Below are positions 6,368-26,005 of a DNA stretch of 64,000 nucleotides, one piece after another. Position 1 is the stretch's first letter. Every line of letters begins with the position of its first letter. Under the pieces are notes generated by a model. It did not search any database and had not been told where the DNA came from. It worked only from the letters and a program-made list of their open reading frames with translations. This DNA comes from Escherichia phage AV118: the sequence record OR352948.1. The stretch is one strand, 5' to 3'. The translations under genes and the position numbers were made by a program.

Positions 6368-9079
6368 TCAAAAATCAAACATATCGAACAGAGATGCTTT
6401 CTTCTCGTAATCGAGTTTAGCTGCTGATGTGAATCCTTCAAGTGGTTTAATAAATGTCTTCTCAAGGAGAACAGTGTAGTCCATCCAATGAAGTACATCG
6501 TCTTTAATTAAATCTGTGATTTCAGTACCAGAAGGCCATGCGATACATTTATCACCGAATGGGTTTCCTTCACGTAAAGGCAGAACATATACTTTTTCAC
6601 CTTCTACAACTTGCGGTGCATCGATATTACCTTTGATAGCCCGGTTATACGTCAGAATTCCACGAATATGGAACGGGCATTTAGGACCAGGGAATCCACC
6701 GACATCATATTTAGCAATGTTATTCGCAGAAGATACCGACGCGATGCTAATATAATTCAATTGACGGAATTCTTTTTCAAACTCTTTAAAATATTCTTGT
6801 AATGATTCTTCACCTTCTTGAAGCATACGACGAATACATTCTTTAAGAGCTTTCTGTACTGCTTTAGGGGTCGAAGATTTCTGAGTCTCTAGACCCATGA
6901 TTTTGAGTTTAGGCTCAGCGTAACGAGTGCCTTCCATATCCCACACGTTTAATGCATAACGTTTCTTACCAGTCCAGAATCCACCAATACCTTTAGAACC
7001 GAGCGGAGGACCAGCGATAGCTTCTCGGTCCATGAACATTAAGTGTTGTTTATTGTTCATGTATTCACACATTTCACGGAAACCTCTATCAATAGCTGGT
7101 TCCATACGTTCACGTGCAAACTTATCTAAGAAGTCTACCCAATGGTTGGTATCACGGAATTTAGATTCACCAACCTTATCGATAATTTTATCAGCAGATA
7201 CGTAAATAGAGTCTGTATCACCATAAAGAACGAAAGCTTTACCTTCTGTACCACAAACTTCATTCAGATATTCATTAACTTTACGTTCAATCCACTGTAA
7301 AGCCATTTGCCCGAATGTTGTGATTGCAGTAGCATTACGCAAATCATAATAACGGAACCAAACGTTGCCAAGTGCACCATAAAGTGAGTTGATAAGCAAT
7401 TTACGGTTAATTTGTGCAGTCATACCTGCAACTTCAGTACGTTGAGCTCTAAACAACATTTCATTAAGAGATTTAGCAGACAACTTTTTAATCTTTTCTT
7501 TAATCTCATCACTGAAGTCGAAACGATAATCAACATCTAATGGTTCGTCAATAGAAAGATTAGGATTATGCAATGCCTCTTTAATTATTTCACCATTACG
7601 TTGAGCTGCAAGCATGTAACCTTTATGTTCTTTACGTTGATTAAAGACCTTAGTGATTTCAGTTGGAACTACACCATCACGGTCTTTATAATACATCATG
7701 CCGTTAGGAGAGCAACTGTACACATCTGAAGGACGTTCAGCGATTGCGTTAATATAATCATGCAATGGAGCTACTTTAAACGTTCCTGCTATTGTTTCCG
7801 GGCTAATATTCACTTGGCGAATAATACTTGGATACAGAGATGTAAGGTCGAAACTCATTACATATTTGTATCGATTTGGAATAGGTTCCTTAACAAAAGC
7901 GCCAGGATAAGGTTGAACCGGGTGAGAACGACCTTGTGGAATCACCTTGTTTTGTTCTTTAAGGCTATTAAAAATAATAGCATCCCAAGTTTTAATTGGA
8001 CTGAACACAGATTGAATCTGAATTTTAGCATAATAACCCATGTCCAAGCTCAAGTTGATGAACTGACGCTTAGAATCAATTTGCAATACACGATACACGT
8101 CGATAATGTTATAAGAAATATATCGTTGGTGATTGCTTTCACGAAGCTTAGAAATAGGGCCGTCATATTTCAGTTTACCAACGTTCAATTCAAATTCTGA
8201 AATGTAATCCAGAGAATACGACGGTTGATTGGTAAAAGAGAATTTTTTGTAAAGGTCAATGTAATCAAGAACAGAGATACCGAACAATGTAATGATTTCA
8301 CGAGAACCATACATGTTTTCGATAACTTTAACACGAGTTTTACGATGTGGCGATAAACGTTTCGCAGTAGATTCGCCAAAAATATTCTTGATTCGGTTAT
8401 ACACATATGGAATATCAAATGACTCAACGTTCCATCCGGTTAAAATGACAGGAGTTTTCTGTTGCCAGAAATTGAGATATTCCATCAATAATTCTTTTTC
8501 ATTATCAAACGGCATATAAACAATTTTGTCGATAATTTCGGATGGAACTTCATCACCACCTTGTTCTTGAAGCTTAGCCGCAATTTCGATAGACCATTCT
8601 TCTACATTGCCGTATGGAGAATTCAAAAGGTCAAATACGTAGAACCTGTCGTCAATTGAGTCATAATGGGTGATAGCATCAATCGGATGTTTTGCTTGTG
8701 ACGGCTCAGGGAACCCGTCCGGAGATGTTACTTCGATGTCGAAGTTAGCCACACGAATTTTTGTATGGTCGTATTTGATTTCATAGTTATAAGTGTCAGA
8801 CAAATACGCCAATTTGAAATCGTCCATGCCAAGTGCTTCAAGTCCGATATCTTCCATGCGTTTAATCCATTGGGAGGCATCACGCATATTAGCGAACAAC
8901 TTACGAGTACACGGCTTACCGTAGATATCGAAATATTTCGTAGCCTGACTTTCCGGACAATGAGCAAACAGTGATGGTTTATATTCTACTTCACGAGTAC
9001 GTTCACGGCCATTAGAATCGATGTAACGTTCAAAAATTGAATCACCAATCTGTTCAACCGTTAAGTAAAATTCTTTCAT
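6368..9079 (-). CDS. 43: DNA polymerase (family B, T4/RB69-type)
   Basis: 903-aa ORF; exonuclease FDIE, polymerase motifs DLTSLYPSII, KILINSLYG, YGDTDS; SD AAGGAAA upstream. Confidence 0.97.
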   Translation of the reverse strand: MKEFYLTVEQIGDSIFERYIDSNGRERTREVEYKPSLFAHCPESQATKYFDIYGKPCTRKLFANMRDASQWIKRMEDIGLEALGMDDFKLAYLSDTYNYEIKYDHTKIRVANFDIEVTSPDGFPEPSQAKHPIDAITHYDSIDDRFYVFDLLNSPYGNVEEWSIEIAAKLQEQGGDEVPSEIIDKIVYMPFDNEKELLMEYLNFWQQKTPVILTGWNVESFDIPYVYNRIKNIFGESTAKRLSPHRKTRVKVIENMYGSREIITLFGISVLDYIDLYKKFSFTNQPSYSLDYISEFELNVGKLKYDGPISKLRESNHQRYISYNIIDVYRVLQIDSKRQFINLSLDMGYYAKIQIQSVFSPIKTWDAIIFNSLKEQNKVIPQGRSHPVQPYPGAFVKEPIPNRYKYVMSFDLTSLYPSIIRQVNISPETIAGTFKVAPLHDYINAIAERPSDVYSCSPNGMMYYKDRDGVVPTEITKVFNQRKEHKGYMLAAQRNGEIIKEALHNPNLSIDEPLDVDYRFDFSDEIKEKIKKLSAKSLNEMLFRAQRTEVAGMTAQINRKLLINSLYGALGNVWFRYYDLRNATAITTFGQMALQWIERKVNEYLNEVCGTEGKAFVLYGDTDSIYVSADKIIDKVGESKFRDTNHWVDFLDKFARERMEPAIDRGFREMCEYMNNKQHLMFMDREAIAGPPLGSKGIGGFWTGKKRYALNVWDMEGTRYAEPKLKIMGLETQKSSTPKAVQKALKECIRRMLQEGEESLQEYFKEFEKEFRQLNYISIASVSSANNIAKYDVGGFPGPKCPFHIRGILTYNRAIKGNIDAPQVVEGEKVYVLPLREGNPFGDKCIAWPSGTEITDLIKDDVLHWMDYTVLLEKTFIKPLEGFTSAAKLDYEKKASLFDMFDF

Positions 9080-9137
9080 TTAATTTCCTTTAGACGAGTT
9101 ATTGTCTTTTGTTTGTTGATGAACTTATTATACTCCA

Positions 9138-9157
9138 AATGGGACCGAAGTCCCATT
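9138..9157 (-). promoter_or_regulatory. stable hairpin (8-bp stem, UUCG loop on mRNA) upstream of gene 43; candidate translational operator/RNA element
   Basis: AATGGGAC-CGAA-GTCCCATT inverted repeat in regA-43 intergenic region. Confidence 0.35.
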
Positions 9158-9160
9158 GCT

Positions 9161-9529
9161 TTAATTACCAATTGTATATTTTGCTTTCAAAGTCCAGTCA
9201 TCTTTCTGTTTAAAAGAGATAACACGGAAGTTATTAGTAAGGCCAAATAGATCTTCACGAGCAGAGTCTTCAATAACAATCAATCCCCAGTCTTCAAGCA
9301 ACTGGGCAATCGAATCACGTCGCTGATAGTCTTCACCGTCAATATCAACCTGACGTCCATCCATACGCAGCATTTCTTTAAAGTGGACGATGTAGTATTT
9401 ACCTTGCTTTTGGAGGATATGACAGGACTGATAAAGGACTTTATCCTTGTTATTAGCGATGCCCATACGGGTCAGAGTCTCTTTGACTTTCAGAAAATCT
9501 TCAGGGTTCTTCAATTTAATTTCAATCAT
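9161..9529 (-). CDS. regA: translational repressor RegA
   Basis: 122 aa from ATG 9529 (MIEIKLK...); sequence and position between gp62 and gp43 as in T4. Confidence 0.9.
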   Translation of the reverse strand: MIEIKLKNPEDFLKVKETLTRMGIANNKDKVLYQSCHILQKQGKYYIVHFKEMLRMDGRQVDIDGEDYQRRDSIAQLLEDWGLIVIEDSAREDLFGLTNNFRVISFKQKDDWTLKAKYTIGN

Positions 9530-9531
9530 TT

Positions 9532-10095
9532 TTACCATTCCAATGCTAATTTTTTAAATTGTTTTTGTTCTTTCACATTTTTTGTAACTTCTTTGAGAAA
9601 CTCATCAGTGACCATGGCCTTCAGTTCTTTAAGGACTATTGGCAGCTTGTTATTTTTTTCAAGGAGCCGTTTATACTCGGTGGCATCATTCATGTTGATT
9701 GTGTAATGTTTCATCAACAATTTGATAACTAGTAACTCTGAAGTGTCTTCGACTAGTTTAGCCCATTTAGAGAATCGTCGGCCACGTGGAATTGCCGCCA
9801 TCATATAGTTGAAGTGCGCTTCATCACTTAATTCAGAACCGACTAAGTTCATCATGTAAACAGCTGGCATACATTCCTGGAACTGGGATAATGAGTTCTC
9901 AACCATAAATTTTGAGTAGTCGACCTGAGCAATTGACATAGATTTCTTTTCATTAATAGCATTAATGATTTTAAAGAATTCGTTCTCAGGTTTTTCTTTA
10001 AACATGTCAGCACATTTTTGAATCGCATCAGCGTCATTAGACTTCCATGCAATTTGGTGCTCGTTAAGTTGGACGTCATCATCAAATAAGTTCAT
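9532..10095 (-). CDS. 62: clamp loader small subunit
   Basis: 187-aa ORF directly downstream of gp44; size/synteny of T4 gp62. Confidence 0.85.
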
Positions 10096-10096
10096 A

Positions 10097-11059
10097 TTAT
10101 TTCCAAGTCAGTTCGCAGGTCAGTTGAAGAAGCATATACATAACATGTAATTCAATATTACTTGCTAATCCATGAAACTTATTATTTTCGCCTGCAATTT
10201 CATAAAGCGAAATAATACTTTTACCTGGTGCAACTTGGTCATAACATTCTGAAACTAATTTATCGATGAACCATGAATAATCTGCAGCATATTTTGGAGC
10301 TAATGCACGAAGTTGTTTGATATCTTTGTTCTTCATTGCTTCTATGACATCATCTACCGTGCCACGGTCATTAGTTACGATAGACAAAATACCCGCATCA
10401 AGAACACCTTTAGACGAGTACTGGTCTAATTGACCAATTGTACGACGAAAGTCCGGGAAGTTCTTTTTAACCAGAGCTGCAACAACTTTCATATCAGCGA
10501 TTTCGATATTTTCGTTCTTACAGATTTCAACCATACGATGAATCATTTTCTTCATCATCGAGATTTTATCTTCTTCGGTTGGACGTCCGAATTCGATAAC
10601 TCGACAACGACTACGTAACGGTTCGATAATTCCATCGATGTTGTTAGCAGTAATAATAATAGAACAGTTACTAGAGAATTCTTCCATAAACGTACGAAGG
10701 TGACGTTGTGATTCGGCGAGGCCACTACGGTCAAATTCATCGATAACGATAACTTTCGGCTTGCCTTCCATTGAGACTGAACGAGCGAATGCAGTTAATG
10801 GACCACGCACAAAATCAATCTTACAATCAGAACCGTTGACGAACATCATTTCGGCATTAATATCATTACATAATGCTTTTGCTACGGTTGTTTTACCTGT
10901 ACCAGGAGAAGGAGAGTGTAAAATAATATGAGGAAGTTTTCCTTTAGATACTAAAGACTTGAATGTTTCATGGTCATACGCAGGCAGAATACATTCGTCA
11001 ATGGAAGAAGGACGATATTTCTGTTCTAGAATGTGTTCTTTGGAATTGATAGTAATCAT
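10097..11059 (-). CDS. 44: clamp loader large subunit (AAA+ ATPase)
   Basis: 320 aa; Walker [11 protein letters not shown], Walker B VIVIDEFD. Confidence 0.95.
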
Positions 11060-11134
11060 GTAATTTTCCTCATTATCATTAAACTGGAGGATTTCTCCTC
11101 CATAATCGTATCACAATAAACGTAAAGCTTTGAC

Positions 11135-11821
11135 TTAGAAGTCGTGAGTAGAATCGGCTTCCATCGCAATAACATAACTTACTTGAGAGCTTTCAAACTT
11201 GGCTGCAACTTTATCACCAGCTCCCCACAACATTACTTTATAGTTACCTGGCTGGATTTTCATATTAGCCATATTGATTACGAAGTTAAAGTTGTTAGAA
11301 CCATCATAATCGGTAAGAGTCAAAGAATACTTAGGACGAGTTAGTCCTGAATCTTCAACTTTATTATAGCCATTGATAACAATTTTACCATCTTTATTTG
11401 TAATAGCAATTGTATCAATCTGAAGACCACGTGAAACTCGAAGCAATTGTTGAAGGTCTTCAGCTTTAATTTCAGTAATCACAGAAGCTACTGGGAATTG
11501 AATTGGCTTATTAGGAAAAACAATTGTGCTCTTGTCAGCGGCAGGCCAATAAACTGTGGAACGTGTATCTGCAATTTTAATATTGCCATCAGTGTGCATT
11601 GAAATTTCAGCATCATCAGACACTAGACTCAAAATGCTTAAGAAGCTATTCAAATCATAAAGTGCTACGTCAAAATCAATTTCATCAGAGATATTTGCTT
11701 CCGCATAAGTGGTGCCATTAACTGCACGAGTCATAATAAATTTACCTTGACTCAGCAGAATGCCAGAGTTAATAGAAGCGAAGTTTTTCAGAATATTTAC
11801 GGTTTCACGGCTAAGTTTCAT
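11135..11821 (-). CDS. 45: sliding clamp
   Basis: 228-aa ORF; sequence and size match T4 gp45. Confidence 0.95.
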   Translation of the reverse strand: MKLSRETVNILKNFASINSGILLSQGKFIMTRAVNGTTYAEANISDEIDFDVALYDLNSFLSILSLVSDDAEISMHTDGNIKIADTRSTVYWPAADKSTIVFPNKPIQFPVASVITEIKAEDLQQLLRVSRGLQIDTIAITNKDGKIVINGYNKVEDSGLTRPKYSLTLTDYDGSNNFNFVINMANMKIQPGNYKVMLWGAGDKVAAKFESSQVSYVIAMEADSTHDF

Positions 11822-12708
11822 TTAGGTTTCCTATTAGCATAATAATTTGTCCAAGACCGGATAGCACCTTGGTATGATTCATCATTAAAACCATGCTGAA
11901 TTGCATGTTTTCTAAATGTAATATAACTTGGTTTTCCTAAAGCAATCCACAATTCCTTTAATTTTTGTTCATGAAATATCCATGTACCTCTAGCTTTAGA
12001 TTTTCTGAATTTATCCTTAAATTCTTTGGTTGCATTTCTTTTCGAAGCTGCGATAGAGGCCTTTGCTCTATTTTCAGGTTTAGACCAATACAATGTTTTA
12101 GATATTTTTATTTTATCTTTAACATTAGGAGAATTCATTATATCTTTAAATTTTAAAGCAAAATCTCTATCGCTAAACATTTTTTTAGAAAGAATAGAAA
12201 CTTTCTCTCTTCGTTCTTTGGTCCAATATGTTTTTTGAAATTCTCTAATTGCGTTTAAATGATTCTCCGACAATTTGCAATTTTTTCTAACACCGACGTA
12301 ATCTTCGTTTATTTCGTTTTTAGAAAGTTTTACTATTTTGCCTGTTTTTAAATTTTTATACGGTGCATATCCTTTAGCTGATATTCTAGACTTCTCGTTA
12401 GCATAAGCCTTATTAAAATATTTTTCATTTGAAACGGCTTTAACATTGAGTTGGAATAGTCTTTCTATTCTTCTAGGGTCTAATGTGGTTTCGCCTAAAA
12501 TTTTTACAGAATATTCGCCTTGGTCTATTAATCTGGTATATAAAGGAGAATACGAGGAATTAACACTACCGGTATATATTTTACCGGTAGAATCTTCAAT
12601 AATATCCTTTCCATTAAAATGACACGAAACTTTAGAACCTATATAATAACACGGGTATTCATTTTTAATCTCACGATTATAAAAGGTTATAAGATATATT
12701 AAATTCAT
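11818..12708 (-). mobile_element. GIY-YIG homing endonuclease gene (Seg-like), free-standing between rpbA and gene 45
   Basis: 296 aa from ATG 12708; N-term LIYLITF...YYIGSK; basic HTH-like C-terminus; paralogous to ORFs at 16570 and 23522. Confidence 0.6.
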
Positions 12709-12713
12709 AATTA

Positions 12714-13130
12714 TCAAGCAGCAACCATCTGCTTTTTAATAGTTTCAGGCAGTGATTCAATATATTCTGGAATTTTAGAAGCAACAATTTCGCCAGCTGC
12801 AATTAGTTGTTCGTCGGCATCAACACAGTAGGAATCTTCCAGACGCTCAGAACCGTCTTTATCAAGAACGATTTTTGCGCCAGCTTCAATAGAATCGTTA
12901 TAGTGCTTACGCATCAGATGAATCCACATATCAGATACATCGTTATCAATAAAACCATAAATCATAAAACGAGTTTCTTGTGGCAAAGATTGGAGTTTTT
13001 TAGCACTTGCGTCATCACAATGCAGGACCCATGCTTTACGAACACGATTATGGTTATGTGGGTTAGCGTCAGTACGGATAGAAGTAACTTTCAGATCAGC
13101 AGCAGTGAAACCTTTAGCAGTAGTAAACAT
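12714..13130 (-). CDS. rpbA: RNA polymerase-binding protein RpbA (by synteny)
   Basis: 138-aa ORF between gp46/45.2 and gp45 region; start uncertain. Confidence 0.5.
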   Translation of the reverse strand: MFTTAKGFTAADLKVTSIRTDANPHNHNRVRKAWVLHCDDASAKKLQSLPQETRFMIYGFIDNDVSDMWIHLMRKHYNDSIEAGAKIVLDKDGSERLEDSYCVDADEQLIAAGEIVASKIPEYIESLPETIKKQMVAA

Positions 13131-13385: not shown

Positions 13386-15074
13386 TTATGAAACAGTCAT
13401 TACCGTAAATCGTCCAACTTTGCTCATTTGAAGATGTTGTCCATAAGCTTGTGGGTCATGGTCTCTGTGACTAATTATAAACACGTTTGCATCGGTTAGA
13501 GAGTTAAGAATTGTTGAAATAGCTTTAATACCTTCAGAATCAGTCGCGGAATCCATGACTTCGTCCATAATTAATGTATTGATTCTAACACCAGAGACCT
13601 TTTCAGCAATATCTCGCCATGTAAACAACAACGCGATATCGATACGTGCTTTTTCACCTTGACTAAATGAAGCATAACTGAACTCTTCACGACCACGTGA
13701 TTTTATAGATTCATTGAATTCTTCGTCAATAGAAAACACGTAATCAGCTTCCATGATTTTAAGATAATGGTTAATCTGCTTGTTGAACAGAGGCACATAT
13801 TTTTTAATGATAGCACCTTTAATACCAGAATCTTTTAACATATCTGTGATAATACCACGATGGTATTTTTCAAGAACGATATCCGATTTTGTTTTAATGA
13901 TTTTATCAAGTTCTTTTTGAAGCAAAGCTATCTCATCGGCATGGTCGATAAATTCCGCTGAGGCTTGTTCTATTGCAGCTTTAACTTTCTTAGCTTTATC
14001 AATAGTGGCAATCATTGCTTGTTTCTTGGTACGAATATCAGATGCAAGGTCCTGTTTAGTCTTAACATTAGCTCTATATTCGTCCACTAGGACACTCAGA
14101 TTATCTCTGTGGCAGGTAAGTTGCTCGAATGAGTGATTACATTCATGAAGCTTATCGGTAATCTTAGAGACAATAGGATCACCCTGGTGCAACTGTGATG
14201 CGCAAGTAGGACATGTACCGCCATCATGATACATCTTAATAACTTTGTTGTATGAGTCAATTTTAGATTTAATCAAGAATGCTTCTTGTCCTATCTTGTT
14301 GAATGCCTCAGTAGGGTCTTCATCAAGAACGATATTAAGTAGTCGCTCATTAGCTTCTTCGATTTCTGCTTTTAATGAACGAGCTTCTTTAGCTAGGTCG
14401 TCATACATATTCTGTAGACGCGCTACATTATCACCAGATAATTTCTTTTGACGTTCGATATTCTCGTTATAAATCTTAATTTGTTGGATAACACCATCTT
14501 TCTTGGCATCGAGAACTTGTCCCTGGGAATTAAGTTCTCGAACTTGAGACTTATTGATTTTATCCATTTCAGCGAGTGTGCCGACTTCTAAAAGGTCTTC
14601 GACAAGTTTTCTACGAGCAGGGGTGCTAAGAGCCATGAAAGGGGTATACCCTGCCGTCCCAAGCACAACGATCTGTTTAAAAGACGCGTATGACATTCCG
14701 ATGCTACGTTCAAATTCTTCTTGGAAGTCACGACTGCTGGCAGATTCATCAAGACGAACACCGTCAACGGAGATTTCGAAAATATTGGGCTTTTGGCCAC
14801 GTTTAATGAAGTATTTTTTATCATCGAATTCCATCCAAAGCTCAACTAAGAGCTCTTTCTTGTTCGTGCTATTAATGATTTGTCCTTTCTTAACATCACG
14901 AAATGGTTTACCGAAAAGTCCGAAAGTAATGGCTTCTAACATCGTAGATTTACCACCGCCATTTTTACCAGTGATTAATGTCTTTTGAACTTTATCTAAT
15001 TGGATATCAATAGGATTCCCACCTACCGACATGATGTTTTGATAACGAACACGATTTAATTTAAATGATTTCAT
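13386..15074 (-). CDS. 46: recombination endonuclease subunit (Rad50/SbcC-like ATPase)
   Basis: 562 aa; Walker A GKNGGGKST, coiled-coil middle, Walker B IMDEVMD. Confidence 0.95.
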   Translation of the reverse strand: MKSFKLNRVRYQNIMSVGGNPIDIQLDKVQKTLITGKNGGGKSTMLEAITFGLFGKPFRDVKKGQIINSTNKKELLVELWMEFDDKKYFIKRGQKPNIFEISVDGVRLDESASSRDFQEEFERSIGMSYASFKQIVVLGTAGYTPFMALSTPARRKLVEDLLEVGTLAEMDKINKSQVRELNSQGQVLDAKKDGVIQQIKIYNENIERQKKLSGDNVARLQNMYDDLAKEARSLKAEIEEANERLLNIVLDEDPTEAFNKIGQEAFLIKSKIDSYNKVIKMYHDGGTCPTCASQLHQGDPIVSKITDKLHECNHSFEQLTCHRDNLSVLVDEYRANVKTKQDLASDIRTKKQAMIATIDKAKKVKAAIEQASAEFIDHADEIALLQKELDKIIKTKSDIVLEKYHRGIITDMLKDSGIKGAIIKKYVPLFNKQINHYLKIMEADYVFSIDEEFNESIKSRGREEFSYASFSQGEKARIDIALLFTWRDIAEKVSGVRINTLIMDEVMDSATDSEGIKAISTILNSLTDANVFIISHRDHDPQAYGQHLQMSKVGRFTVMTVS

Positions 15075-15325: not shown

Positions 15326-15554
15326 TACACGCTTCAGCCATTTTAAGAATAGAGCCAGGAGTATCGTTGTCCATTATATTAAAGCTAAATTCAATAGCCC
15401 AGTCAGTGCAGACATGAACTGCTTTAACTTCATTGCCTTCAACGCGTAATGGCTCAATCCAATACTTGATAGTGTTCTCGAATCCATCGTCATCTTTAAC
15501 GTCCATTTCAACTTCAAGCCTGAGTCCAGCATTGTTAAATTCATCTAAAGTCAT
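15297..15554 (-). CDS. hypothetical protein (46.2-like)
   Basis: 85-aa ORF, overlaps neighbours by a few nt. Confidence 0.5.
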   Translation of the reverse strand: MTLDEFNNAGLRLEVEMDVKDDDGFENTIKYWIEPLRVEGNEVKAVHVCTDWAIEFSFNIMDNDTPGSILKMAEACIEDAYNDED

Positions 15555-16573
15555 TGTGTTGCCTCAATATAAAGTTCGTTGGAATATTTGACCAGCGCTT
15601 CTCTGTCTTCATCTGAGATATCTGGAATCGCGTCAATATATTCTTTAATGATATCTTGAAGTGATTTAATCTCGATTTCCTGGTCGTCATCAGATTCAAC
15701 ACTGTTATCAACTTTAGAAACCATACGAAGAGAGTGAACTACTTTTTCAAGTTCAGATTCAAACTTAGTCAACTCTGAATCAATTTCTGATACTATAACA
15801 CGTACGGCTAGATTAGTATAATCAGAATAATTGATTTTGCCTTTAAATGGATAAGTGATTCGTCGATGCCATGTTGTTTCATTAGGAATAAATTCCATAC
15901 GTTCAACATCAGTGTCAAATACCCAGAATCCGCGAGGGTCGTTCTCATCACCTGCAGTAAGGGTCCATGGTGTCCCAATATATTTGACGTTAGCAGCTTC
16001 AGAGATTGTGTGGAAGTGGCCAGACCAGACTTGTTTATAGGTCTTTAAGAAATCAGGTTCAAGCCCATGAGACTTCATTCCTTTATAGAAATAGAAGCCA
16101 TTTAATTCCCAGTGCCCAACACAATACGCTGCAGAAGAAGTCTTGATGTGCTCTAAGATTTCACCTGTATTTTCTTCACACATCCATGGAATCAAATCAA
16201 TCAAGCACCCATCAAAATCTACTGTAGTTGGCTTATCATAAATTATTACGTTTTTACGATGGCTCAATAATTCTTGAACAGTGTTAGGATATAAGGTTGT
16301 TTTATAAAAGAGATCATGATTCCCAAGTATTGTATGGACTGTTATACCAGCGGCTTCCACCAAATCAAACATTTCACGCGTGAATTCCATACAACGTTGT
16401 GTGGTGTGGGCTCTGACATCAAATGTATCACCATATTGAATCCATGTTGTTATTCCATTTGCGACGGAATAGTCGATCATTTGTCTGAAACCGTCACGTT
16501 GTATAGCTTGAATCCAATCGTCGTCTTTTTTGACGCCTAGATGCAAATCGCCTATATTAAGTATTTTCATCAC
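15551..16573 (-). CDS. 47: recombination endonuclease subunit (Mre11/SbcD-like phosphoesterase)
   Basis: 340 aa; ILNIGDLHLG, GNHD metallophosphatase motifs. Confidence 0.95.
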   Translation of the reverse strand: MMKILNIGDLHLGVKKDDDWIQAIQRDGFRQMIDYSVANGITTWIQYGDTFDVRAHTTQRCMEFTREMFDLVEAAGITVHTILGNHDLFYKTTLYPNTVQELLSHRKNVIIYDKPTTVDFDGCLIDLIPWMCEENTGEILEHIKTSSAAYCVGHWELNGFYFYKGMKSHGLEPDFLKTYKQVWSGHFHTISEAANVKYIGTPWTLTAGDENDPRGFWVFDTDVERMEFIPNETTWHRRITYPFKGKINYSDYTNLAVRVIVSEIDSELTKFESELEKVVHSLRMVSKVDNSVESDDDQEIEIKSLQDIIKEYIDAIPDISDEDREALVKYSNELYIEATQ

Positions 16574-17373
16574 ATACCTTTAAATTTGGAGTAAATTATA
16601 TTGTGGTACGATATATCAGGAAACCCTTTATCGACCGCAATTTTTCTAAACTTATTAGGACTTATTTTACCACACTCCATCCATAATGCAAACAACTCGT
16701 CAAAATGCTCATATGCTGGACCTCGACGAGCTTTTGACACAGCAGCACTTATGCGAGCCTTTTTCTCAGAATCAAGGTTTTTAAGAGAATTACTTATTTT
16801 ATTTTTTTGCTCTTCTGAATTGAAGGTGCCTTTTTCCCAGCCTAAAGGTTGGCTTCCTTCATGGAACATTTTTCTTGAAGTTCCATTGGTATACCATATT
16901 TTACCTTTATTGTGCCCTGATGCTTTATATTTTGGTGAGCGTCCTTTTATAAATCCTTCAGGTATAGTAGGAGCAAATGTTTGTTCAAGGGTTTCTGGGT
17001 TATACGAATGTATGTTATTTTTGGCGTTATGAGACCCATATAATGGGTGATTTTTACCAGAAACATCACGCCCAAAGAAACCAGTTGGTGATGCCAAAGA
17101 CATATTCATATACAAAGGATTTTTATGAGCTTGAACTCTAATTTGATAGTCCTTTTCCACCTTTAAAGCTTCTTCTCGTGTTGGATGTTCGCTCAAAATA
17201 CAAGAATCAAACAACGTAGGATTTTCTAAAAGTTCTTTGTTATAAATTTTACGATAGGCTTTAGATAGAATAGTACCATGATACCCGTTTAAATGTTTTT
17301 CTAAGCTAGTCGAACCTATGTAAAAAGGTGGTAGCTTATCTCCAGAATAAATTGTCAAATAGACTATAAACAT
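16570..17373 (-). mobile_element. GIY-YIG homing endonuclease gene (Seg-like) at the locus where T4 carries alpha-glucosyltransferase
   Basis: 267 aa from ATG 17373 with SD AAAGGAGA; VYLTIYSG..FYIGST; NUMOD3-like GKNHPLYG and GHNKGKIW repeats. Confidence 0.65.
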
Positions 17374-17427
17374 ATATTTCTCCTTTGATTTAAGGAGATT
17401 ATAACACGCCTTTAATGAAGCGTAAAC

Positions 17428-17456
17428 AAAAAAAGGAAGCACTAGGCTTCCTTTTG
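17428..17456. terminator. bidirectional intrinsic-terminator-like hairpin (A7-GGAAGC-loop-GCTTCC-T4)
   Basis: Inverted repeat flanked by A-run and T-run. Confidence 0.5.
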
Positions 17457-17518
17457 ATATCGCCTAAGGCTTATAGGTCCTTAGAAATCTGGATGTTCAT
17501 CTTCAACAAAGCTAGTAT

Positions 17519-17734
17519 TCATCGCTGCCACCATTTTTTAAGTTGATGTGAATCTACCCATACCTTCGCTACAGGCTCAATATTAAAAATACCATCGGAC
17601 GTACGTCCAATCATTTTGTATTCGGTTTCAGATTGCTTGATACAAATATCACCATAAGAGCGAAGTCTAAAAGCGGCTCCTACTAGAAGCCGTTTAAACT
17701 TTGTTTGAACTAGCGCCATTAATGATGTCCTCAA
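17519..17734 (-). CDS. hypothetical protein
   Basis: 71-aa ORF. Confidence 0.45.
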   Translation of the reverse strand: MRTSLMALVQTKFKRLLVGAAFRLRSYGDICIKQSETEYKMIGRTSDGIFNIEPVAKVWVDSHQLKKWWQR

Positions 17735-18017
17735 TAGCCTGACGAGTAGTAACCCACTGGATTTTAATTAACTTGTCATTATATGGTTGTCTTAGAATAT
17801 CCCGAGATTTCTTAATAGCATATTCGTAAGCTTCGAAGTTGTTTTGAATTGCTGCTTCTTGAGCATGAGCATAAAGACGGTTTAGTTCAAAACGATTCTT
17901 TTTAAGAATCTTTTCGGATTTTTTACGTGCTTCAGCTTCATTTTTCTTTTGGATTTCTTGTAGCATTTTAGCTACTGCATCTTCTGCTTCTTTATTTTCA
18001 ATAATCTCGGTAGTCAT
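17694..18017 (-). CDS. hypothetical protein (coiled-coil rich)
   Basis: 107-aa ORF. Confidence 0.5.
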   Translation of the reverse strand: MTTEIIENKEAEDAVAKMLQEIQKKNEAEARKKSEKILKKNRFELNRLYAHAQEAAIQNNFEAYEYAIKKSRDILRQPYNDKLIKIQWVTTRQAIEDIINGASSNKV

Positions 18018-18018
18018 A

Positions 18019-18234
18019 TTATCTCATTAAATTAAAATAAAAACGTCCGTCCTCTTCAATACAGAACTCATACTCAACCGGAGTCCCATTTATCGAAAAT
18101 AACACGTCATGTGGGTTCAAAGGGTCGATGTCAAAATTAATTTTAAATTCACGACCCAACAGTTTTACCAAATAAGGGATTGCTTCGTCAAAAGGTTCTT
18201 CTAAGTAGTTAGAGATGTCAATTGTCATCCTCAT
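18019..18234 (-). CDS. hypothetical protein
   Basis: 72 aa from ATG 18234 (MRMTIDIS...), ORF-track N-terminal extension overlaps gp55. Confidence 0.45.
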
Positions 18235-18793
18235 ATAAAAAATCCAAACTAGGCGAATCGCTAACAACTTCCTTCTTTTCAGCCCCAGGAGCTTTATAAG
18301 CGGATTCTTCATAATGCGTCATTTTATCGTAGATGTCTTGAATAAACGTTTCATCTACCAACGCTACCATATCATCGTCATGACTGTCGTAGACATTATG
18401 AACGAAGTAACTATATTTCTTTGCAACTTCCTTACGTTCTTTTTTGATACGTTGGACAAAAGCATTAAAACAAGCTCGAGTTATGTATGCATGTGGGTTA
18501 TTGTACTTAGTTTCGTCGAAATTATGAAGTCCCTTAATAGAGGCTTCAATCCCATCTGCAATCATCTCCTGCTTCCAAGACTGGGTATATCCTGAAAAGT
18601 TGAAACGTTTGGACAGGCCTTCGGCGATAAGCATAATTGCTAAACCGATGGTATCATTCTGACGAATAATTTTGTTTGGGTCTTTATTATTTAAGAGCTC
18701 CTTTTTCCACTCGATTATAGCGGCGAGAAGCTCTTTATTATTCACATAGTTATTTTTAGGTTTTTGTTCAGTCATAAGTACCTCTTGGCTCAA
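18218..18793 (-). CDS. 55: late-transcription sigma factor
   Basis: 191 aa; sequence and size match T4 gp55. Confidence 0.95.
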
Positions 18794-18930
18794 TTCATAG
18801 GTCTATTATATCATAATATTTAGAGACCTATCTTAAAGCACGAGATACTATCAAAGATACGTAACTTTCATAAAGTTGTCGACTTAAAATTCACCAAACT
18901 TTTCTTCGGTTATAGCGATTCAAGATAGTT

Positions 18931-20196: not shown

Positions 20197-20445
20197 TCAG
20201 AGGTTGATTGATACAATGCGTTTGATAAAATTCACTTCACTTACTGAAAGGTCTTTAAGACCGATTGATTCTAAACGCTGAGTAAGCGTCAACATCGTGA
20301 TATAGTCCCATTGTGTTTTAGACGTTTGATAAGTACGGACGCCATTAGCAATTTCAACATGCAAATCGGAAATGGTAACGAATACCGGTCGCTCGTCATT
20401 AACTTTAAGGGTTAGAACAACTTTCTTTGAATCTAAACTAATCAT
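20197..20445 (-). CDS. hypothetical protein
   Basis: 82 aa from ATG 20445 (MISLDSKK...), SD GAGGAAA. Confidence 0.5.
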   Translation of the reverse strand: MISLDSKKVVLTLKVNDERPVFVTISDLHVEIANGVRTYQTSKTQWDYITMLTLTQRLESIGLKDLSVSEVNFIKRIVSINL

Positions 20446-20612
20446 TTTATTTTCCTCTGTGGTAGATGGTGTTAATCTTAACATATCTATCGAGGATGTA
20501 AACTGTTTTATGAAAATATTTTTTGATTTGAGAGGGGCACAAGGAGATAGTGAAGTGAAGATTCCAATGGATTATATTAGAAATGAGATAAAGAAGACCA
20601 GGCGGCACCTGG

Positions 20613-20921
20613 TCAATCTTCTATGATATCAGAGTCATATCCTAATGAAATCAAGGACTTTTTAAACTCTGCAATATTCTTTTGTTTCTTATCATTTAAA
20701 AATATGACAGGATAACGAATATTAAGTGAAGTGAATCCTGCACGTTTAGCAAGAGATACGATTAAAGGACGGTCATATTCAATCTTACCATTATTAGTGA
20801 GGACTTTATAAAATGTATAAGGAGCATTGAGCTCCTTTAAAAGTTTTGTAACAGTATAACATCCTGGACAACGTCCAACTTCTTCAGGGATGCCATAAAT
20901 TTCAATCTTGTTGTGTTCCAC
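20613..20921 (-). CDS. nrdH: glutaredoxin/NrdH-like redoxin
   Basis: 102 aa; CPGC redox motif; position downstream of nrdG as T4 nrdH. Confidence 0.6.
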   Translation of the reverse strand: MEHNKIEIYGIPEEVGRCPGCYTVTKLLKELNAPYTFYKVLTNNGKIEYDRPLIVSLAKRAGFTSLNIRYPVIFLNDKKQKNIAEFKKSLISLGYDSDIIED

Positions 20922-20923
20922 AA

Positions 20924-21136
20924 TTATTCCTTGCCAAGAACAGAATTCAGTTTATTAGTAATTTTGTCCAAACGTTCATTGAATTCGCTGGAGGATAAAC
21001 CCTTTTCCGGAGAAATTAAACTAATCACGAAAAATACAACAGTAAAAGGAATAAGAAAAATAGCTCCAACTGCCATAAATGAAAAGAACGTTACAGTTGT
21101 AAGAAAATCAGCTAAACCTTTACGAAATTTATACAT
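20924..21136 (-). CDS. small membrane protein
   Basis: 70-aa ORF with two hydrophobic segments. Confidence 0.45.
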   Translation of the reverse strand: MYKFRKGLADFLTTVTFFSFMAVGAIFLIPFTVVFFVISLISPEKGLSSSEFNERLDKITNKLNSVLGKE

Positions 21137-21246
21137 ATTTGCCCTTAATTAACTAAGCATTGATAAGCACTAAACTATATTGCGAATAAAATTCTGGACC
21201 AAAACGAAAAATCATATCATTTATAGTATCCATAATGTAATTCAAT

Positions 21247-21717
21247 TTAATCATGTTTCCACACCCCATCGGTATTTGACCAAAGTCGCTGATTATCTGA
21301 TCCTCGCCACAGCTTTTTAGTCGGAAGATTTTTCTCATACTTCCCATCAATAATAACATCAACATATTTAAGCATTTCTAGTTGTTTAATATCTTCAAAA
21401 TTATATCCTGTCCACAACCAAATGCTTTTATTGGGATAAAGATTTTTAATAGTTTGAACCACAGAGTGAATCACATCTCTGTTATCAGGATAGAGAGGGT
21501 CACCTCCGGTTATAGTCAATCCTTCTATATAATCATTATTCAAACATTCAATTAATTGTTCTAGTGTTTCACCAGTGAATGGAATACCATTTCTAGCATT
21601 CCATGTTGATTTATTATAACACCCTTCGCATTTATGCAAACAACCCGTAACGAAAAGAACGACCCTGCAACCAGGGCCATTCACAAAATCGCAAGGATAA
21701 AATCTATCATAATTCAT
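21247..21717 (-). CDS. nrdG: anaerobic ribonucleotide reductase activating protein (radical SAM)
   Basis: 156 aa; CLHKCEGC (Cx3Cx2C) motif; ATGA coupling with nrdD. Confidence 0.9.
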   Translation of the reverse strand: MNYDRFYPCDFVNGPGCRVVLFVTGCLHKCEGCYNKSTWNARNGIPFTGETLEQLIECLNNDYIEGLTITGGDPLYPDNRDVIHSVVQTIKNLYPNKSIWLWTGYNFEDIKQLEMLKYVDVIIDGKYEKNLPTKKLWRGSDNQRLWSNTDGVWKHD

Positions 21718-23531
21718 TGGTGTTTAACCCTATGCATGATTTCTTTATTTTTACCGAGATTAAATCCGCGTTCGTTCGGATTTCCCAAATAACCGCATGT
21801 TCTTCTTATGGTGTTCATCTTTTTAGGATCAGTTTCTCCACAGATAGAACAAACAAATCCGTTTTCAGTAGGAGTCATTTCATGGGTACTTCCACATGTA
21901 AAACATTTATCTACTGGCATATTAACACCAAAATAATCTAAATGTTGTGCAGCATAATCCCACACGGCCTCAAGTCCTTTTAAGTTATTTTTCATATCAG
22001 GAAGTTCAACATAAGAAATGTGACCACCTGTCGCAATGAAATGATATGGCGCTTCACGAGAAATCTTTTCAAACGGAGTAATATTTTCTTCTACTGAAAC
22101 GTGGAAACTGTTAGTGTACCAGCCTTTATCGGTAACATCTTTTACACTTCCATATTTTTCTGTATCGAGTTTACAGAAGCGATAACAAAGGTTTTCAGCA
22201 GGAGTCGAATATAAACTAAAAGCAAATCCAGTTCTTTCGGTCCACTGCTTAAGATGAGCATTCATTTTAGTTAAAATTTCTTGCCCAATATCACGACCGA
22301 CAAGAATATTCAATTCGTGAATACCAATGTATCCTAAAGACACTGAACTTCTACCGTTTTTAAATAACTCAATTATGTCGTCATCAGGTTTAAGACGAAC
22401 CCCGAATGCACCTTCTTGGTAAAGAATAGGAGCTACAGTTGCTTTAACACCCTTTAAAGAACTAATTCTACACATCAAGGCTTCAAAACACAGATCCATT
22501 CGTTCATTGAATAATTCAACAAATTTCTGTTCATTGAACTGTGTTCCAATATAAGAATCTAATGCGATACGAGGAAGATTCAGTGTTACAACGCCGAGAT
22601 TATTACGACCGTCAAGAATTTCATTTCCAGTTGAATCTTTCCATACGCTCAAGAAACTACGGCAACCCATCGGAGAAACTGGAACTGAAGAACCGGTAAT
22701 AGCTTTATTATTCTTAACTGAAATAATGTCAGGATACATTCTTTTGCTTGCACATTCTAACGCAAGTTGTTTAATATCATAGTTTGGATCATCTTTATAA
22801 AGATTAACACCTTCTTCAAAAAACATAACAAGCTTAGGGAAAATAGGAGTTATTCCATCACGTCCAAGGCCTTTAATGCGGTTTTTAAGAATTGCCTTCT
22901 GAATCATTCGTTCAGTCCAGTCAGTTCCTGTACCAAATGTAATTGTTACAAAAGGTGTTTGTCCGTTTGAACTAAAGAGAGTATTTACTTCATATTCATA
23001 AGCTTGGAATGCATCGTATACATCTTTTTCTGTTTTAGATTGAGCATAATTCAACGCATCAGCGATTTGCCATTTTTCTGCATCCTCAATATGTTTTGCA
23101 TAGGTGCGTTTAACATAAGGAGAAAGTACTTTATCTACATTAGCAAAAGTCGTTCCGCCGTATTGATGGGAAGCAACCTGTGCAGTAATTTGTGCCATAA
23201 TTGCAGTAGCAACACCGATTGATTTAGGAGTTTCAATCTGTGCATTACCAAGCTTAAATCCATTCTCAAGCATTCCTTTTAAATCTACTAAACAGCAATT
23301 AGTAAAAGGCAATGATATACTGTAATCTAAATCGTGAAAATGAATTAATCCGACATTATGAGCATTTACAATATGGCTCGGAAGAATACTACAAGCGATA
23401 TGTTTAGAAACAATACCGGCCATTAAATCTCTTTTTGTTGGAAAGACACGAGAATCTTTGTTGGCATTTTCGGTATTTAATTCTTTATCTTTATTTGAAA
23501 TAAAATTTAAAACATCTTTCTCTAAAGACAT
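21714..23531 (-). CDS. nrdD: anaerobic ribonucleoside-triphosphate reductase (class III)
   Basis: 605 aa; C-terminal glycyl-radical motif RRTCGYLG; uninterrupted ORF. Confidence 0.95.
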   Translation of the reverse strand: MSLEKDVLNFISNKDKELNTENANKDSRVFPTKRDLMAGIVSKHIACSILPSHIVNAHNVGLIHFHDLDYSISLPFTNCCLVDLKGMLENGFKLGNAQIETPKSIGVATAIMAQITAQVASHQYGGTTFANVDKVLSPYVKRTYAKHIEDAEKWQIADALNYAQSKTEKDVYDAFQAYEYEVNTLFSSNGQTPFVTITFGTGTDWTERMIQKAILKNRIKGLGRDGITPIFPKLVMFFEEGVNLYKDDPNYDIKQLALECASKRMYPDIISVKNNKAITGSSVPVSPMGCRSFLSVWKDSTGNEILDGRNNLGVVTLNLPRIALDSYIGTQFNEQKFVELFNERMDLCFEALMCRISSLKGVKATVAPILYQEGAFGVRLKPDDDIIELFKNGRSSVSLGYIGIHELNILVGRDIGQEILTKMNAHLKQWTERTGFAFSLYSTPAENLCYRFCKLDTEKYGSVKDVTDKGWYTNSFHVSVEENITPFEKISREAPYHFIATGGHISYVELPDMKNNLKGLEAVWDYAAQHLDYFGVNMPVDKCFTCGSTHEMTPTENGFVCSICGETDPKKMNTIRRTCGYLGNPNERGFNLGKNKEIMHRVKHQ

Positions 23532-24343
23532 AATTCTAATTTATCCTTTTGAAATTCTTCGTCTAAATATGGGTTCCAACCCATTTTAAACCTTTTGATG
23601 AAATTATCAATTCTAAATTTCGGTAAATTTAACTCCGCAAAAATAGATGATTTACTTTTAAAATCTGGACCTAAATAATCATATAAAATTTCTGCGTATT
23701 TTAACCATAATATATAAGTACCAGATTTAATTGCTCTAGGAGTTTTCCAAGGTTTTACGCCGTACATCGGATTTCCACTTCCTTTATGCCTGATAGAAGA
23801 TGAAATTCCAATTTTAATTTTAGCTTCCTTTGTGTGCGAAAATCCATGATGTGGATTTTCTTTCCAGTATTTTTTAGAAGCTTCTGATATTTTCTTTCTG
23901 GCTAAATTAGTATGATGCTTTCCATAAAATCCATGATTTTTACCTTTATTACGATTTCTTTTAATCATGGTTATTGATTGCTTTTCTCTAGTTTCTTTAG
24001 AAGGAGAAACACCGTACGTTGTAAATTGACCATTAGCATATGCTAAATTAAAATACTCTTTATTCCATATATCTTTTTCTATATTCTTTTGAAATTCAGC
24101 TTCAATGCTAGTTATTTGTTCATCTCCGACTAATTGAAAATATAATATTTCAACTTTCGGTGTTTCTTTCAACAGAGCTTTTTGAAATTCGGAAGATGAC
24201 GAAGACGAATAATAAAATTTACCATTTTTATCAATAATATTCGTTCCGTCAAAAGTGCAATTGGTTTTACTTCCAATATAATAATATGGCGGGGTTTTAG
24301 CATTAATTCTACTAATAAATGATAGTTTATATACTACATTCAT
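23522..24343 (-). mobile_element. GIY-YIG homing endonuclease gene (Seg-like), free-standing between gene 49 and nrdD
   Basis: 273 aa; VYKLSF..YYYIGSK; NUMOD3-like GKNHGFYG, GSGNPMYG; paralog of 11818 and 16570 ORFs. Confidence 0.65.
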
Positions 24344-24813
24344 TTTAAACTCTTTCTAAGCTGCTTCTTAAATGAAGCTATTAATTGTGTTTTGGTGTCA
24401 GATTCATTATATTCAAATCCTCTTTGAAGCATCTCGGCCATCATTTCCTCTTTTCCTAAACGAGAAAATTCCTTTGATTTATCTCCAACGAAGTTAGGGT
24501 GAATATTATTTTGGGTGTAATCGGATTTTAAATAAGTAAGTAAATTTTCTAACCATTCAAGATAATCAACGCCTTGTCCCTTTAAACCAGAGCGATTAAA
24601 TTTATGTTTCATTTGACCTTCTGCAGCATTGCAGAGATTACAAAGCAATCCACGTACCTTTCCTGCTTTTGGTCCATTTAATTCATGGTCATGATCGAGG
24701 TGATTAGCTTGAACATCAGGATTTAGTTCTCGTTGGCAAATTAAGCATTTACCGTTTTGTGCATCATAAAATTTCTGTTTTTCTTCTTTATATAATTTGC
24801 CAGTCAATAACAT
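24340..24813 (-). CDS. 49: endonuclease VII (Holliday junction resolvase)
   Basis: 157 aa; Zn-binding CLICQ...HLDHDH...CNLCN; sequence matches T4 gp49. Confidence 0.95.
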   Translation of the reverse strand: MLLTGKLYKEEKQKFYDAQNGKCLICQRELNPDVQANHLDHDHELNGPKAGKVRGLLCNLCNAAEGQMKHKFNRSGLKGQGVDYLEWLENLLTYLKSDYTQNNIHPNFVGDKSKEFSRLGKEEMMAEMLQRGFEYNESDTKTQLIASFKKQLRKSLK

Positions 24814-24819
24814 AATAAA

Positions 24820-24852
24820 ACCCTTACCTTAAATAGATAAGGGTATTTATTA
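24820..24852 (-). promoter_or_regulatory. hairpin sequestering gene 49 SD, preceded by late-promoter-like AATAAATA
   Basis: ACCCTTA...TAAGGGT inverted repeat 7 nt upstream of ATG; AATAAATA on minus strand at 24852..24845. Confidence 0.4.
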
Positions 24853-24855
24853 TTT

Positions 24856-25341
24856 TCAAGTATTGTAAAACATTTGATGCAATCGCTTATATTGCCGAAT
24901 CATTTGGTCAGAAAAAGAAATTTGAGTTTCAAGCCATTCAATGTATTCTGCGGCAGCTTGCATCAGGTTACCTTCATAGCCATCGTTATTTTCTTGTGCA
25001 GCTAATTTAGCTAATGCGTATGAAATACGTTCACCTTGAAAATCGGCTTTAGGCTTCTGAACAACTTGATTAGTTCGCTCTACAACTTCTTCAATTTCGC
25101 CATTTTCGACTGATTCAGTATTCCACAAACACCAATACGTAATTGGCTTATCGTAGATGTTAATAATCTTTCCATCAGAAAGTTCAATTTCAATAATTCC
25201 AGTATCAGGTTCTATATCATCTTCACATTCTTTTGCAAGTTCACGAACTTTAAAGACAGTACCTGCACTAAGTTCCGGCCAGTAATTACACAGCCCTGTA
25301 TCAGCACGATTAATTCTAAACCACTTATCTACTGTAATCAT
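24856..25341 (-). CDS. hypothetical protein (pin-like by position and size)
   Basis: 161 aa from internal Met; lies where T4 pin lies; no motif support. Confidence 0.4.
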   Translation of the reverse strand: MITVDKWFRINRADTGLCNYWPELSAGTVFKVRELAKECEDDIEPDTGIIEIELSDGKIINIYDKPITYWCLWNTESVENGEIEEVVERTNQVVQKPKADFQGERISYALAKLAAQENNDGYEGNLMQAAAEYIEWLETQISFSDQMIRQYKRLHQMFYNT

Positions 25342-25464
25342 GTCCCATCTCCATATCAATTAAGTCATTTATCGTTGGTTCATTATACACCGTTTCTTCA
25401 TCAGTGTAAACCGGTTCTTCCGGCTCTGGCTCTACAGTTTCCCATCTAGCCGCCCACCAAGGTT

Positions 25465-25785: not shown

Positions 25786-25795
25786 TTTTCACCAA

Positions 25796-26005
25796 TTAAT
25801 TTCGCAATTTATTAAGTTCTTCATAATCAATCCAGGATTCTAATCCTGATGGCAAATCAGATTCAATTTCCCAAAGAAGTTCTTCAATTTTATGAAGACG
25901 ATCTAGTTCTTCAGCAGGAATAGTAACCATTGACGGAGCTTTTGCTACATTAATATCGTAAATCATATTTACCCCAGTTTGACCATACAATCGCCGTATT
26001 TCCAC
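25796..26005 (-). CDS. hypothetical protein
   Basis: 69-aa ORF. Confidence 0.45.
   Translation of the reverse strand: MEIRRLYGQTGVNMIYDINVAKAPSMVTIPAEELDRLHKIEELLWEIESDLPSGLESWIDYEELNKLRN

Follow-up and report, generated by a model that had tools for sequence, protein, structure and literature searches.

Gene organization between gene 47 and gene 55

The analysed DNA, hereafter the window, is a stretch of 64,000 nucleotides from Escherichia phage AV118 (sequence record OR352948.1). The present work deals with the interval between its gene 47 and gene 55, where the gene of a predicted Seg-like GIY-YIG homing endonuclease lies directly upstream of gene 47 and is itself preceded by small open reading frames (ORFs). 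All genes of the region are on the minus strand and the coordinates of the features are given in Table 1. The endonuclease ORF encodes 267 aa from the ATG at 17373, a 290-aa version with a GTG start being an upstream extension of it, and its TGA shares one base with the ATG of gene 47 (TGATG). The original prediction, made from the sequence alone, had placed here a GIY-YIG gene with a strong Shine-Dalgarno (SD) sequence, a hairpin and small ORFs, and all of these were recovered at the same positions on the minus strand, the SD being AAGGAG at 17385-17380, 6 nt before the endonuclease ATG. The small ORFs, present as described, are the conserved T-even genes a-gt.3 and a-gt.4, with a-gt.5 just beyond the stretch that had been considered.

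By its sequence, the window is part of a Mosigvirus (RB69-like) genome and is collinear with RB69. Positions 16000-18900 (2.9 kb) were 100% identical to AV109 and AV114, Danish isolates described as Mosigvirus, RB69-like T-even phages (PMC10844046), and in ~150 other Mosigvirus records the similarity is confined to the flanks of this segment. Window 1-12000 showed 98.5-98.9% identity to the AV phages, and the 3' end was nearest to phage mogra (97.7%). AV109, identical to the window across the gene 47-gene 55 locus, was used as a proxy for all statements on the whole genome.

Table 1. Features of the gene 47-gene 55 locus and of related regions, in window coordinates
Feature	Position	Strand	Basis or remark
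Gene 47, Mre11/SbcD-like recombination nuclease, chimera	15551-16570	-	Pfam Metallophos
Foreign co-conversion-like tract	about 16192-17687	.	sliding identity; RB69-type backbone on either side
Free-standing SegA-like GIY-YIG homing endonuclease gene (predicted), 267 aa	16570-17373	-	profile and fold
Shine-Dalgarno-pairing hairpin UCUCCUU-AAAUCA-AAGGAGA	17379-17398	-	7-bp stem
Sigma-70/T4-early-type promoter-like site	17398-17427	-	consensus match
Intrinsic terminator hairpin and U-run	17431-17455	-	terminator scan, folding
a-gt.3 homolog, chimera	17519-17719	-	phrog_1648, E 2e-29
a-gt.4 homolog, RB69-type backbone	17694-18017	-	DUF2654, E 1e-27
a-gt.5 homolog, RB69-type backbone	18019-18228	-	DUF5491
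Gene 55, late sigma factor, right-hand edge of the locus	18218-18775	-	ORF list, AV109 annotation
Gene 46 (46.1 and 46.2 follow)	13386-15074	-	order from ORF list, AV109 annotation, homology
Arabinosylation gene cluster (context)	327-6327	-	homology to RB69 cluster; functions per PMC13326640
Putative DNA arabinosyltransferase 1 (RB69p047+p046)	327-1226	-	function proposed in PMC13326640
Thymidylate-synthase-like 5-hydroxy-dCMP synthase	1226-1942	-	PMC13326640
U32-like protein	within 327-6327	-	arabinosylation cluster
NTP-transferase/kinase	3825-5510	-	PMC13326640
Arabinose-5-phosphate isomerase	5692-6327	-	PMC13326640

Family and predicted fold of the endonuclease

Pfam searches with the endonuclease alone gave sub-threshold matches to GIY-YIG (E 0.004, 17.8 bits versus a cut-off of 22.6) and to NUMOD3 (E 0.013). 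A total of 120 homologs were collected, of which 76 were aligned and each scanned with Pfam, whereby NUMOD3 was detected in 41/76, GIY-YIG in 17/76, SegE_GIY-YIG in 3/76 and HNH in 0/76. The N-terminal motif of the endonuclease reads ...VYLTIY...FYIGST... and every family-invariant residue is retained (Y9, G11, P15, Y18, G20, Y31, G33, E47, F55, E73 and N90), Y5/Y9, Y18-I19-G20, E73 and N90 being invariant or nearly so across the 76 homologs. We take Y5/Y9, Y18, E73 and N90 to occupy I-TevI-like positions (Y6, Y17, E75 and N90 of I-TevI).

The AlphaFold model computed on the homolog alignment had a mean pLDDT of 89.5, with the DNA-binding C-terminus also confident. Residues 2-79 (pLDDT >95) are arranged as beta-beta-alpha-alpha-beta-alpha (E2-9, E17-23, H24-28, H41-50, E55-63, H66-79), and this predicted structure displays the three-stranded sheet and flanking helices of the GIY-YIG fold. 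The sole credible Foldseek matches to the model were to the I-TevI catalytic domain (probability 0.97-0.99). When the family profile was compared by hhalign with T4 SegA, the match extended over 187 columns with the C-terminus included (probability 96.7%, E 4e-10) and covered both the Seg signature YIG...GY-GS and the C-terminal '...A-(E/D)-(A/K)-GFP-(N/D)-x-SY'. Against the I-TevI homolog of AV109, the NUMOD3-like segment matched and the catalytic domain did not. Searches of the PDB chain sequences with the single sequence and the profile yielded nothing useful and no residue-level alignment, and a search of NCBIfam with the endonuclease gave no match. The architecture is that of an N-terminal catalytic domain, a NUMOD3-type linker and a C-terminal helix-turn-helix. 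On the basis of the Pfam counts on homologs, the AlphaFold/Foldseek fold, the SegA profile match and the invariant residues, the endonuclease is therefore assigned, from sequence and model, as a new, uncharacterised member of the Seg-like (SegA-like) GIY-YIG homing endonucleases, and the earlier GIY-YIG call on this ORF was right.

A second Seg-like GIY-YIG ORF of 299 aa is located between gene 45 and rpbA (11818-12717, minus strand), at a place where RB69 has 42 nt. Its N-terminus reads IYLITF...YYIGSK, its C-terminus resembles that of the endonuclease adjacent to gene 47, and it is 27% identical to the enzyme of phage LF82-4 (tblastn E 2e-6). A third paralog lies outside the window, beside gene 39 in AV109 (record 79140-79823).

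A foreign tract and a chimeric gene 47

The sliding identity of the window to RB69, PhAPEC2 and LF82-4 was 97-100% outside the tract, up to about 16190, decreased to 59-70% over 16200-16570, the first ~370 nt of gene 47, and returned to 97-100% at 17688, while no alignment was obtained for 17387-17687. The dense mismatches stop at about 16192, with a sparse patch out to 16079. In the protein, residues 1-120 of gp47 were 61% identical to RB69 and residues 121-339 were 99% identical, and the dS of gene 47 was about 2.0 in the 5' third and 0.15 in the rest. Codons 1 to about 125 of gene 47 are a foreign allele and the remainder is RB69-type. The left junction falls within the block PTTVDFDGCLID...EENTGEILE, which is conserved in the window, RB69, PhAPEC2, LF82-4, T4 and teqhad (6/6). 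The right junction is found at 17688, after codon 11 of a-gt.3, the first 11 codons being RB69-type and the remainder from the donor, so that the a-gt.3 homolog as a whole has 51% aa identity to a-gt.3 of RB69 and 46% to that of T4. The gene a-gt.2 is absent from the locus.

These comparisons show that ~1.5 kb of foreign DNA (about 16192-17687), set in a 98-100% RB69-type backbone, came with the endonuclease gene, and that it took the place of codons 1 to ~125 of gene 47, the terminator/promoter region of the backbone, a-gt.2 and all but the first 11 codons of a-gt.3. Such a tract is a textbook footprint of homing co-conversion. An assembly error at 16192 or 17688 is unlikely, since the tract is common to four independently sequenced AV genomes.

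The donor of the tract was shown to be a distant, unsampled T-even relative. Distant blastn searches gave a best nucleotide match outside the AV phages of about 70-71%, and among 5.8 billion proteins no other sequence exceeded 63% aa identity, the exact protein being found in AV phage records only. Viral and metagenome contigs gave no hit in exact-pattern scans, a protein-pattern scan of IMG/VR returned only a 40% paralog, and the synonymous sites of the endonuclease are saturated relative to LF82-4 and KIT01.

The a-gt.3 homolog (AV109 record 115194-115394) is unannotated in the AV109, AV114 and AV116 records, which accounts for an apparent 320-nt 'intergenic' gap in them. The scan also flagged as terminator-like a site in the coding sequence of this gene and within the foreign tract, where the perfect 12-bp palindrome GGACGTACGTCC (17594-17611, minus strand) precedes a T-rich run.

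Predicted expression signals upstream of the endonuclease

Read along the coding strand, the a-gt.3 stop (17519) is followed by the terminator (17455-17431), a GTTTAC element, a TATAAT element, the SD hairpin (17398-17379) and the ATG (17373). The terminator has a 10-bp stem and a 5-nt loop (-17.1 kcal/mol, z -3.7) followed on the minus strand by UUUGUUU, and it is predicted to end the a-gt.5-a-gt.3 transcription unit upstream of the endonuclease. It had been described as bidirectional; the hairpin stands and its A7/T7 flanks are formally symmetrical, but the term carries no functional meaning, since the scan called the minus strand only and no plus-strand gene converges on it. On the plus strand of 17431-17455, only 4 U follow the stem.

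The SD hairpin has a 7-bp stem (UCUCCUU/AAGGAGA) with a local fold of -13.3 kcal/mol (z -3.5). The promoter-like site, GTTTAC at 17427-17422 and a TG-extended TATAAT at 17403-17398, has 10/12 consensus matches and a predicted start at about 17391, ~7 nt after the -10 element and in the loop of the SD hairpin. Hairpins that sequester the ribosome binding site (RBS) have been reported for I-TevI/II/III, segB and mobE of T4, with late promoters, and embedded or displaced promoters for T4 endonuclease genes (PMC2988022), and by analogy a regulatory role may be proposed for the SD hairpin. The terminator would insulate the endonuclease gene from upstream transcription, and in read-through RNA the SD would be locked in the 7-bp hairpin and translationally silent. 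Transcripts starting at about 17391 would lack the 5' arm of the hairpin, which the promoter overlaps, and would be translatable; through the TGATG overlap, the same promoter would also feed gene 47.

At the equivalent place, RB69 and PhAPEC2 have a different terminator, and ahead of gene 47 RB69 has, together with this terminator, a MotA-box-like element (TTTGCTTTA ... TAAAAT). From this sequence comparison, the insertion has probably changed the transcription of gene 47/46. A promoter for gene 47 embedded in the 3' end of the endonuclease gene (16692-16664) was also considered and is not relied on, with 9/12 consensus matches and no enrichment.

Absence of a-gt and DNA modification

In T4 the order is 47, 47.1, a-gt, mobB, a-gt.2-a-gt.5, 55. 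In RB69 and PhAPEC2 it is 47, terminator, a-gt.2, a-gt.3, a-gt.4, a-gt.5, 55; a-gt and an endonuclease gene are both missing, and gene 47 is separated from a-gt.2 by only 69 nt. Dhakavirus KIT01 also has no a-gt at the gene 47 locus, and in teqhad an endonuclease homolog lies between gene 47 and an intact a-gt. The original prediction was right that the gene 47-gene 55 interval lacks a glycosyltransferase. It had proposed as checks a comparison of the locus with that of T4 and RB69, which gave the gene orders above, and a search for an a-gt homolog elsewhere in the genome; with T4 a-gt and b-gt as tblastn queries, neither the 64-kb window nor the complete genome of AV109 yielded a significant homolog. 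The best a-gt match (47246-47425, E 0.016) was rejected as a chance match, with 27% identity over 69 aa to an unrelated 207-aa ORF (46910-47533). The absence of a-gt and b-gt in RB69 had already been published (PMC6024577, PMC13326640). Taken together, the comparisons show that a-gt was never at this locus in the genus and that its absence is genus-wide and independent of the endonuclease. The tract displaced no modification gene, and the gene 47 locus is uninformative on the exchange of such genes.

Cytosine arabinosylation, a non-glucose modification, has been published for RB69 (PMC6024577, PMC13326640), and the genus was shown to arabinosylate its cytosines with genes located elsewhere than the gene 47 locus. 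The RB69 cluster that lies between gene 43 and uvsX has a collinear counterpart (97.1%) in window 1-6729 (Table 1), and a further arabinosylation gene, a homolog of ORF003c, lies outside the window. Consequently, the non-glucose modification put forward in the original prediction is real, although it was already published for RB69 and is shown by the cluster at 1-6330 and not by the gene 47 locus. Within the cluster, positions 327-1226 (minus strand) hold a single intact 299-aa ORF corresponding to RB69p047 plus RB69p046, which gives independent support to the claim of PMC13326640 that the RB69p047/p046 split is a sequencing error.

Distribution next to gene 47 in T-even phages

Among about 150 close Mosigvirus records, the endonuclease allele was present in 4 AV phages only and a 63% relative in LF82-4; AV112, AV113 and RB69 are non-carriers. 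It is a rare, recent addition in Mosigvirus, present or absent at one fixed position in closely related genomes and accompanied by replaced flanking sequence. In LF82-4 the 63%-identical endonuclease occupies the same site and the gene 47 allele has been exchanged as far as about nt 360, and the right flank (terminator, a-gt.2, a-gt.3) is RB69-type. The AV phages and LF82-4 are two independent acquisitions with a common left junction, which points to a break on the gene 47 side.

In tblastn searches with the N-terminal 115 aa of gp47, the nearest alleles were those of LF82-4 (87%), Erwinia phage FBB1 (77%) and Serratia phage LC53 (75%), all others being at <=63%. All three of LF82-4, FBB1 (Roskildevirus) and LC53 (Winklervirus) carry a homologous endonuclease directly upstream of gene 47, and in Dhakavirus KIT01 and many Tequatroviruses, too, a homolog adjoins gene 47. 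The endonuclease family thus occupies the slot upstream of gene 47 across several T-even genera. Together with the two acquisitions in Mosigvirus, this recurrence speaks for a homing element and not for an isolated insertion. The further idea that the endonuclease and the first ~120 codons of gene 47 travel as a single mobile module across Mosigvirus, Roskildevirus and Winklervirus is, in our estimate, quite unlikely. These codons cover the N-terminal third of the Mre11-like nuclease, which presumably includes its phosphoesterase motifs.

Some of the homologs look decayed. In LC53 (L017 1738-2470) the C-terminal part continues in another frame, and the Tequatrovirus versions (teqhad, L010 3869-4492) stop at about 207 aa without the helix-turn-helix, in keeping with the cycle of gain, decay and loss that is usual for homing endonuclease genes.

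Proposed homing history and its alternatives

The insertion of a Seg-type GIY-YIG homing endonuclease right upstream of gene 47, together with ~1.5 kb of foreign flanks, is considered a likely history of the locus. In a mixed infection, the endonuclease would cut the DNA of an endonuclease-free relative near the insertion point. Among the Seg enzymes, SegG is reported to target gene 32. T4 SegA targets its neighbour gene uvsX (review table, PMC2988022). By analogy with this established pattern, in which an adjacent conserved gene is the target, the likeliest site of cleavage would be the 5' third of gene 47. The break would be repaired by T4-type recombination with the endonuclease-carrying genome as template, and the endonuclease gene and its flanks would thereby be copied in (homing, or marker exclusion). 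The carrier would escape cleavage through the 30-40% nucleotide divergence of its own 5' allele of gene 47.

Several points weigh against this account. Gene 47 is a putative cleavage target deduced from sequence. The canonical GIY-YIG arginine (R27 of I-TevI) is without a clearly aligned counterpart, the family having K27/H28. Promoter-like sites are not in excess in the region (11 found versus 8.9 expected), and the endonuclease-specific promoters of T4 have been reported as middle or late, never early (PMC2988022). An I-TevI-style operator, a copy of the candidate target near the endonuclease promoter, was not found, the best match of 15/20 being equal to shuffled controls. Finally, in Tequatrovirus teqhad the homolog is truncated (207 aa) and the 5' end of gene 47 is 92-98% identical to that of endonuclease-free T4, so that the association of endonuclease and gene 47 allele is not constant.

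An alternative reading is that the tract was introduced by ordinary homologous recombination between co-infecting phages, with the endonuclease as an inactive or decaying passenger and no homing at all. T-even genomes are highly mosaic, the identical ~9-kb block shared with AV109 (10.5-19.5 kb) within 98-99% flanks speaks for frequent plain recombination, the relatives in teqhad (207 aa) and LC53 (frame-shifted C-terminus) are decaying, and the canonical arginine is not evident. This explanation nevertheless appears unlikely, given that the ORF is of full length with every family-invariant residue in place, that its high-confidence fold includes the DNA-binding C-terminus, and that it has its own SD, promoter-like site and hairpin. 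Moreover, two endonuclease alleles entered one backbone with the same left junction, and the pairing of endonuclease and gene 47 5' allele recurs in four T-even genera. The nature of the enzyme itself could be disputed on the basis of existing annotation, as it falls in phrog_10820 of PHROGs, labelled 'HNH endonuclease' (E 2.5e-75), and the RefSeq product names of its homologs (teqhad, LF82-4, others) say the same. An HNH enzyme is, on the other hand, hardly conceivable when no HNH domain was detected in the 76 homologs against 17 GIY-YIG and 3 SegE_GIY-YIG, when the top fold matches are solely GIY-YIG nucleases with no HNH structure, and when both the SegA profile match and the ...VYLTIY...FYIGST... 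N-terminus agree with a GIY-YIG nuclease; 'HNH' is a misnomer for this family.

The original prediction had gone further and held that the endonuclease replaced a-gt, illustrating the exchange of modification genes among T-even phages. It can be argued for this that in T4 47.1, a-gt and mobB all lie in the interval from gene 47 to a-gt.2, which makes it a hot spot for both kinds of gene, and that homing endonucleases have been speculated to help move modification genes in Tevenvirinae (PMC8056088). Such a replacement is contradicted by the comparisons and very improbable, as a-gt is also missing from endonuclease-free RB69 and PhAPEC2 and from KIT01, and teqhad carries the endonuclease homolog beside its a-gt. 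Nor does an exchange of modification genes find a trace in the tract, which contains no modification gene or a-gt remnant, the donor segment running a-gt.3, terminator, endonuclease, 47 without a-gt.

Other mosaic regions of the window

The ~9-kb block (about 10.5-19.5 kb) differs from AV109 by one base, has flanks of 98-99% identity and holds both GIY-YIG endonuclease genes of the window, and this pattern suggests that co-circulating Mosigviruses have recently exchanged it in full. Positions of about 45940-48565, with ORFs 46910-47533 and 47562-48170 inside, and of about 49560-50340 are without megablast counterpart in AV109 and represent further mosaic insertions or replacements. Window 20440-27050 (nrdG, nrdD, gene 49) is less similar to AV109 (84-95%), and an additional homing endonuclease gene is annotated in the matching part of AV109 (record 121374-122195); the window segment may be a further zone of endonuclease-associated exchange.

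Significance

The analysis corrects a tempting but wrong inference, the absence of a-gt in RB69-like phages being a genus trait tied to arabinosylation genes located elsewhere. It also assigns a catalytic family (GIY-YIG, Seg-like) to widespread T-even genes that are now labelled 'hypothetical' or, wrongly, 'HNH', and it provides a clean natural case of endonuclease-associated allele replacement in gene 47 that is experimentally tractable with existing isolates. This is ordinary biology that will not surprise a specialist, and the understanding of phage DNA modification or of homing is unchanged by it. If the single-module idea were true, homing would not just propagate a selfish gene but would swap deeply diverged versions (about 60% aa) of part of an important recombination nuclease. 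Such a swap could alter how the nuclease behaves or how it responds to inhibitors of host or phage origin, and an early-type promoter would take over the expression of gene 46/47 from a middle promoter of the MotA type.

Comparison with known systems

The endonuclease shares with T4 SegA and the Seg family (SegB-G) the predicted catalytic fold and the signature YIG ... GY-GS ... E ... N, as well as the free-standing position in an intergenic slot beside a conserved DNA-metabolism gene and the presence or absence among close relatives. As in Seg-mediated marker exclusion, the flanking markers have been replaced. It differs from SegA in being only about 23% identical to it, and from the T4 Seg enzymes in its insertion upstream of gene 47, a slot without an endonuclease gene in T4, and in a predicted promoter that is sigma-70/early-like and not middle or late; its activity and target are putative. 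With I-TevI of the td intron it has in common the NUMOD3-like element, matched in the AV109 I-TevI homolog, and the RBS-sequestering hairpin that is relieved in transcripts starting inside it (PMC2988022), which is predicted here. Unlike I-TevI, it is not intron-encoded, shows no sequence-level match in the catalytic domain, has no clearly aligned equivalent of R27 and is without a detectable operator-like duplicate of the target site.

Like T4 mobB, the endonuclease gene lies within the variable interval between gene 47 and gene 55, which is therefore a recurrent landing site for homing endonuclease genes, although mobB is of the HNH type, is placed between a-gt and a-gt.2 and has no sequence similarity at the locus. 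The closest counterparts are the uncharacterised orthologs of LF82-4, KIT01/LQ5 (Dhakavirus-like), FBB1, LC53, teqhad and many Tequatroviruses, which are 55-65% identical and abut the start of gene 47. The window allele is set apart from these by its identity of <=63% to any other among the 5.8 billion proteins and by a tract that also removed a-gt.2 and replaced a-gt.3. Whereas the Tequatrovirus orthologs are C-terminally truncated, the window endonuclease is of full length.

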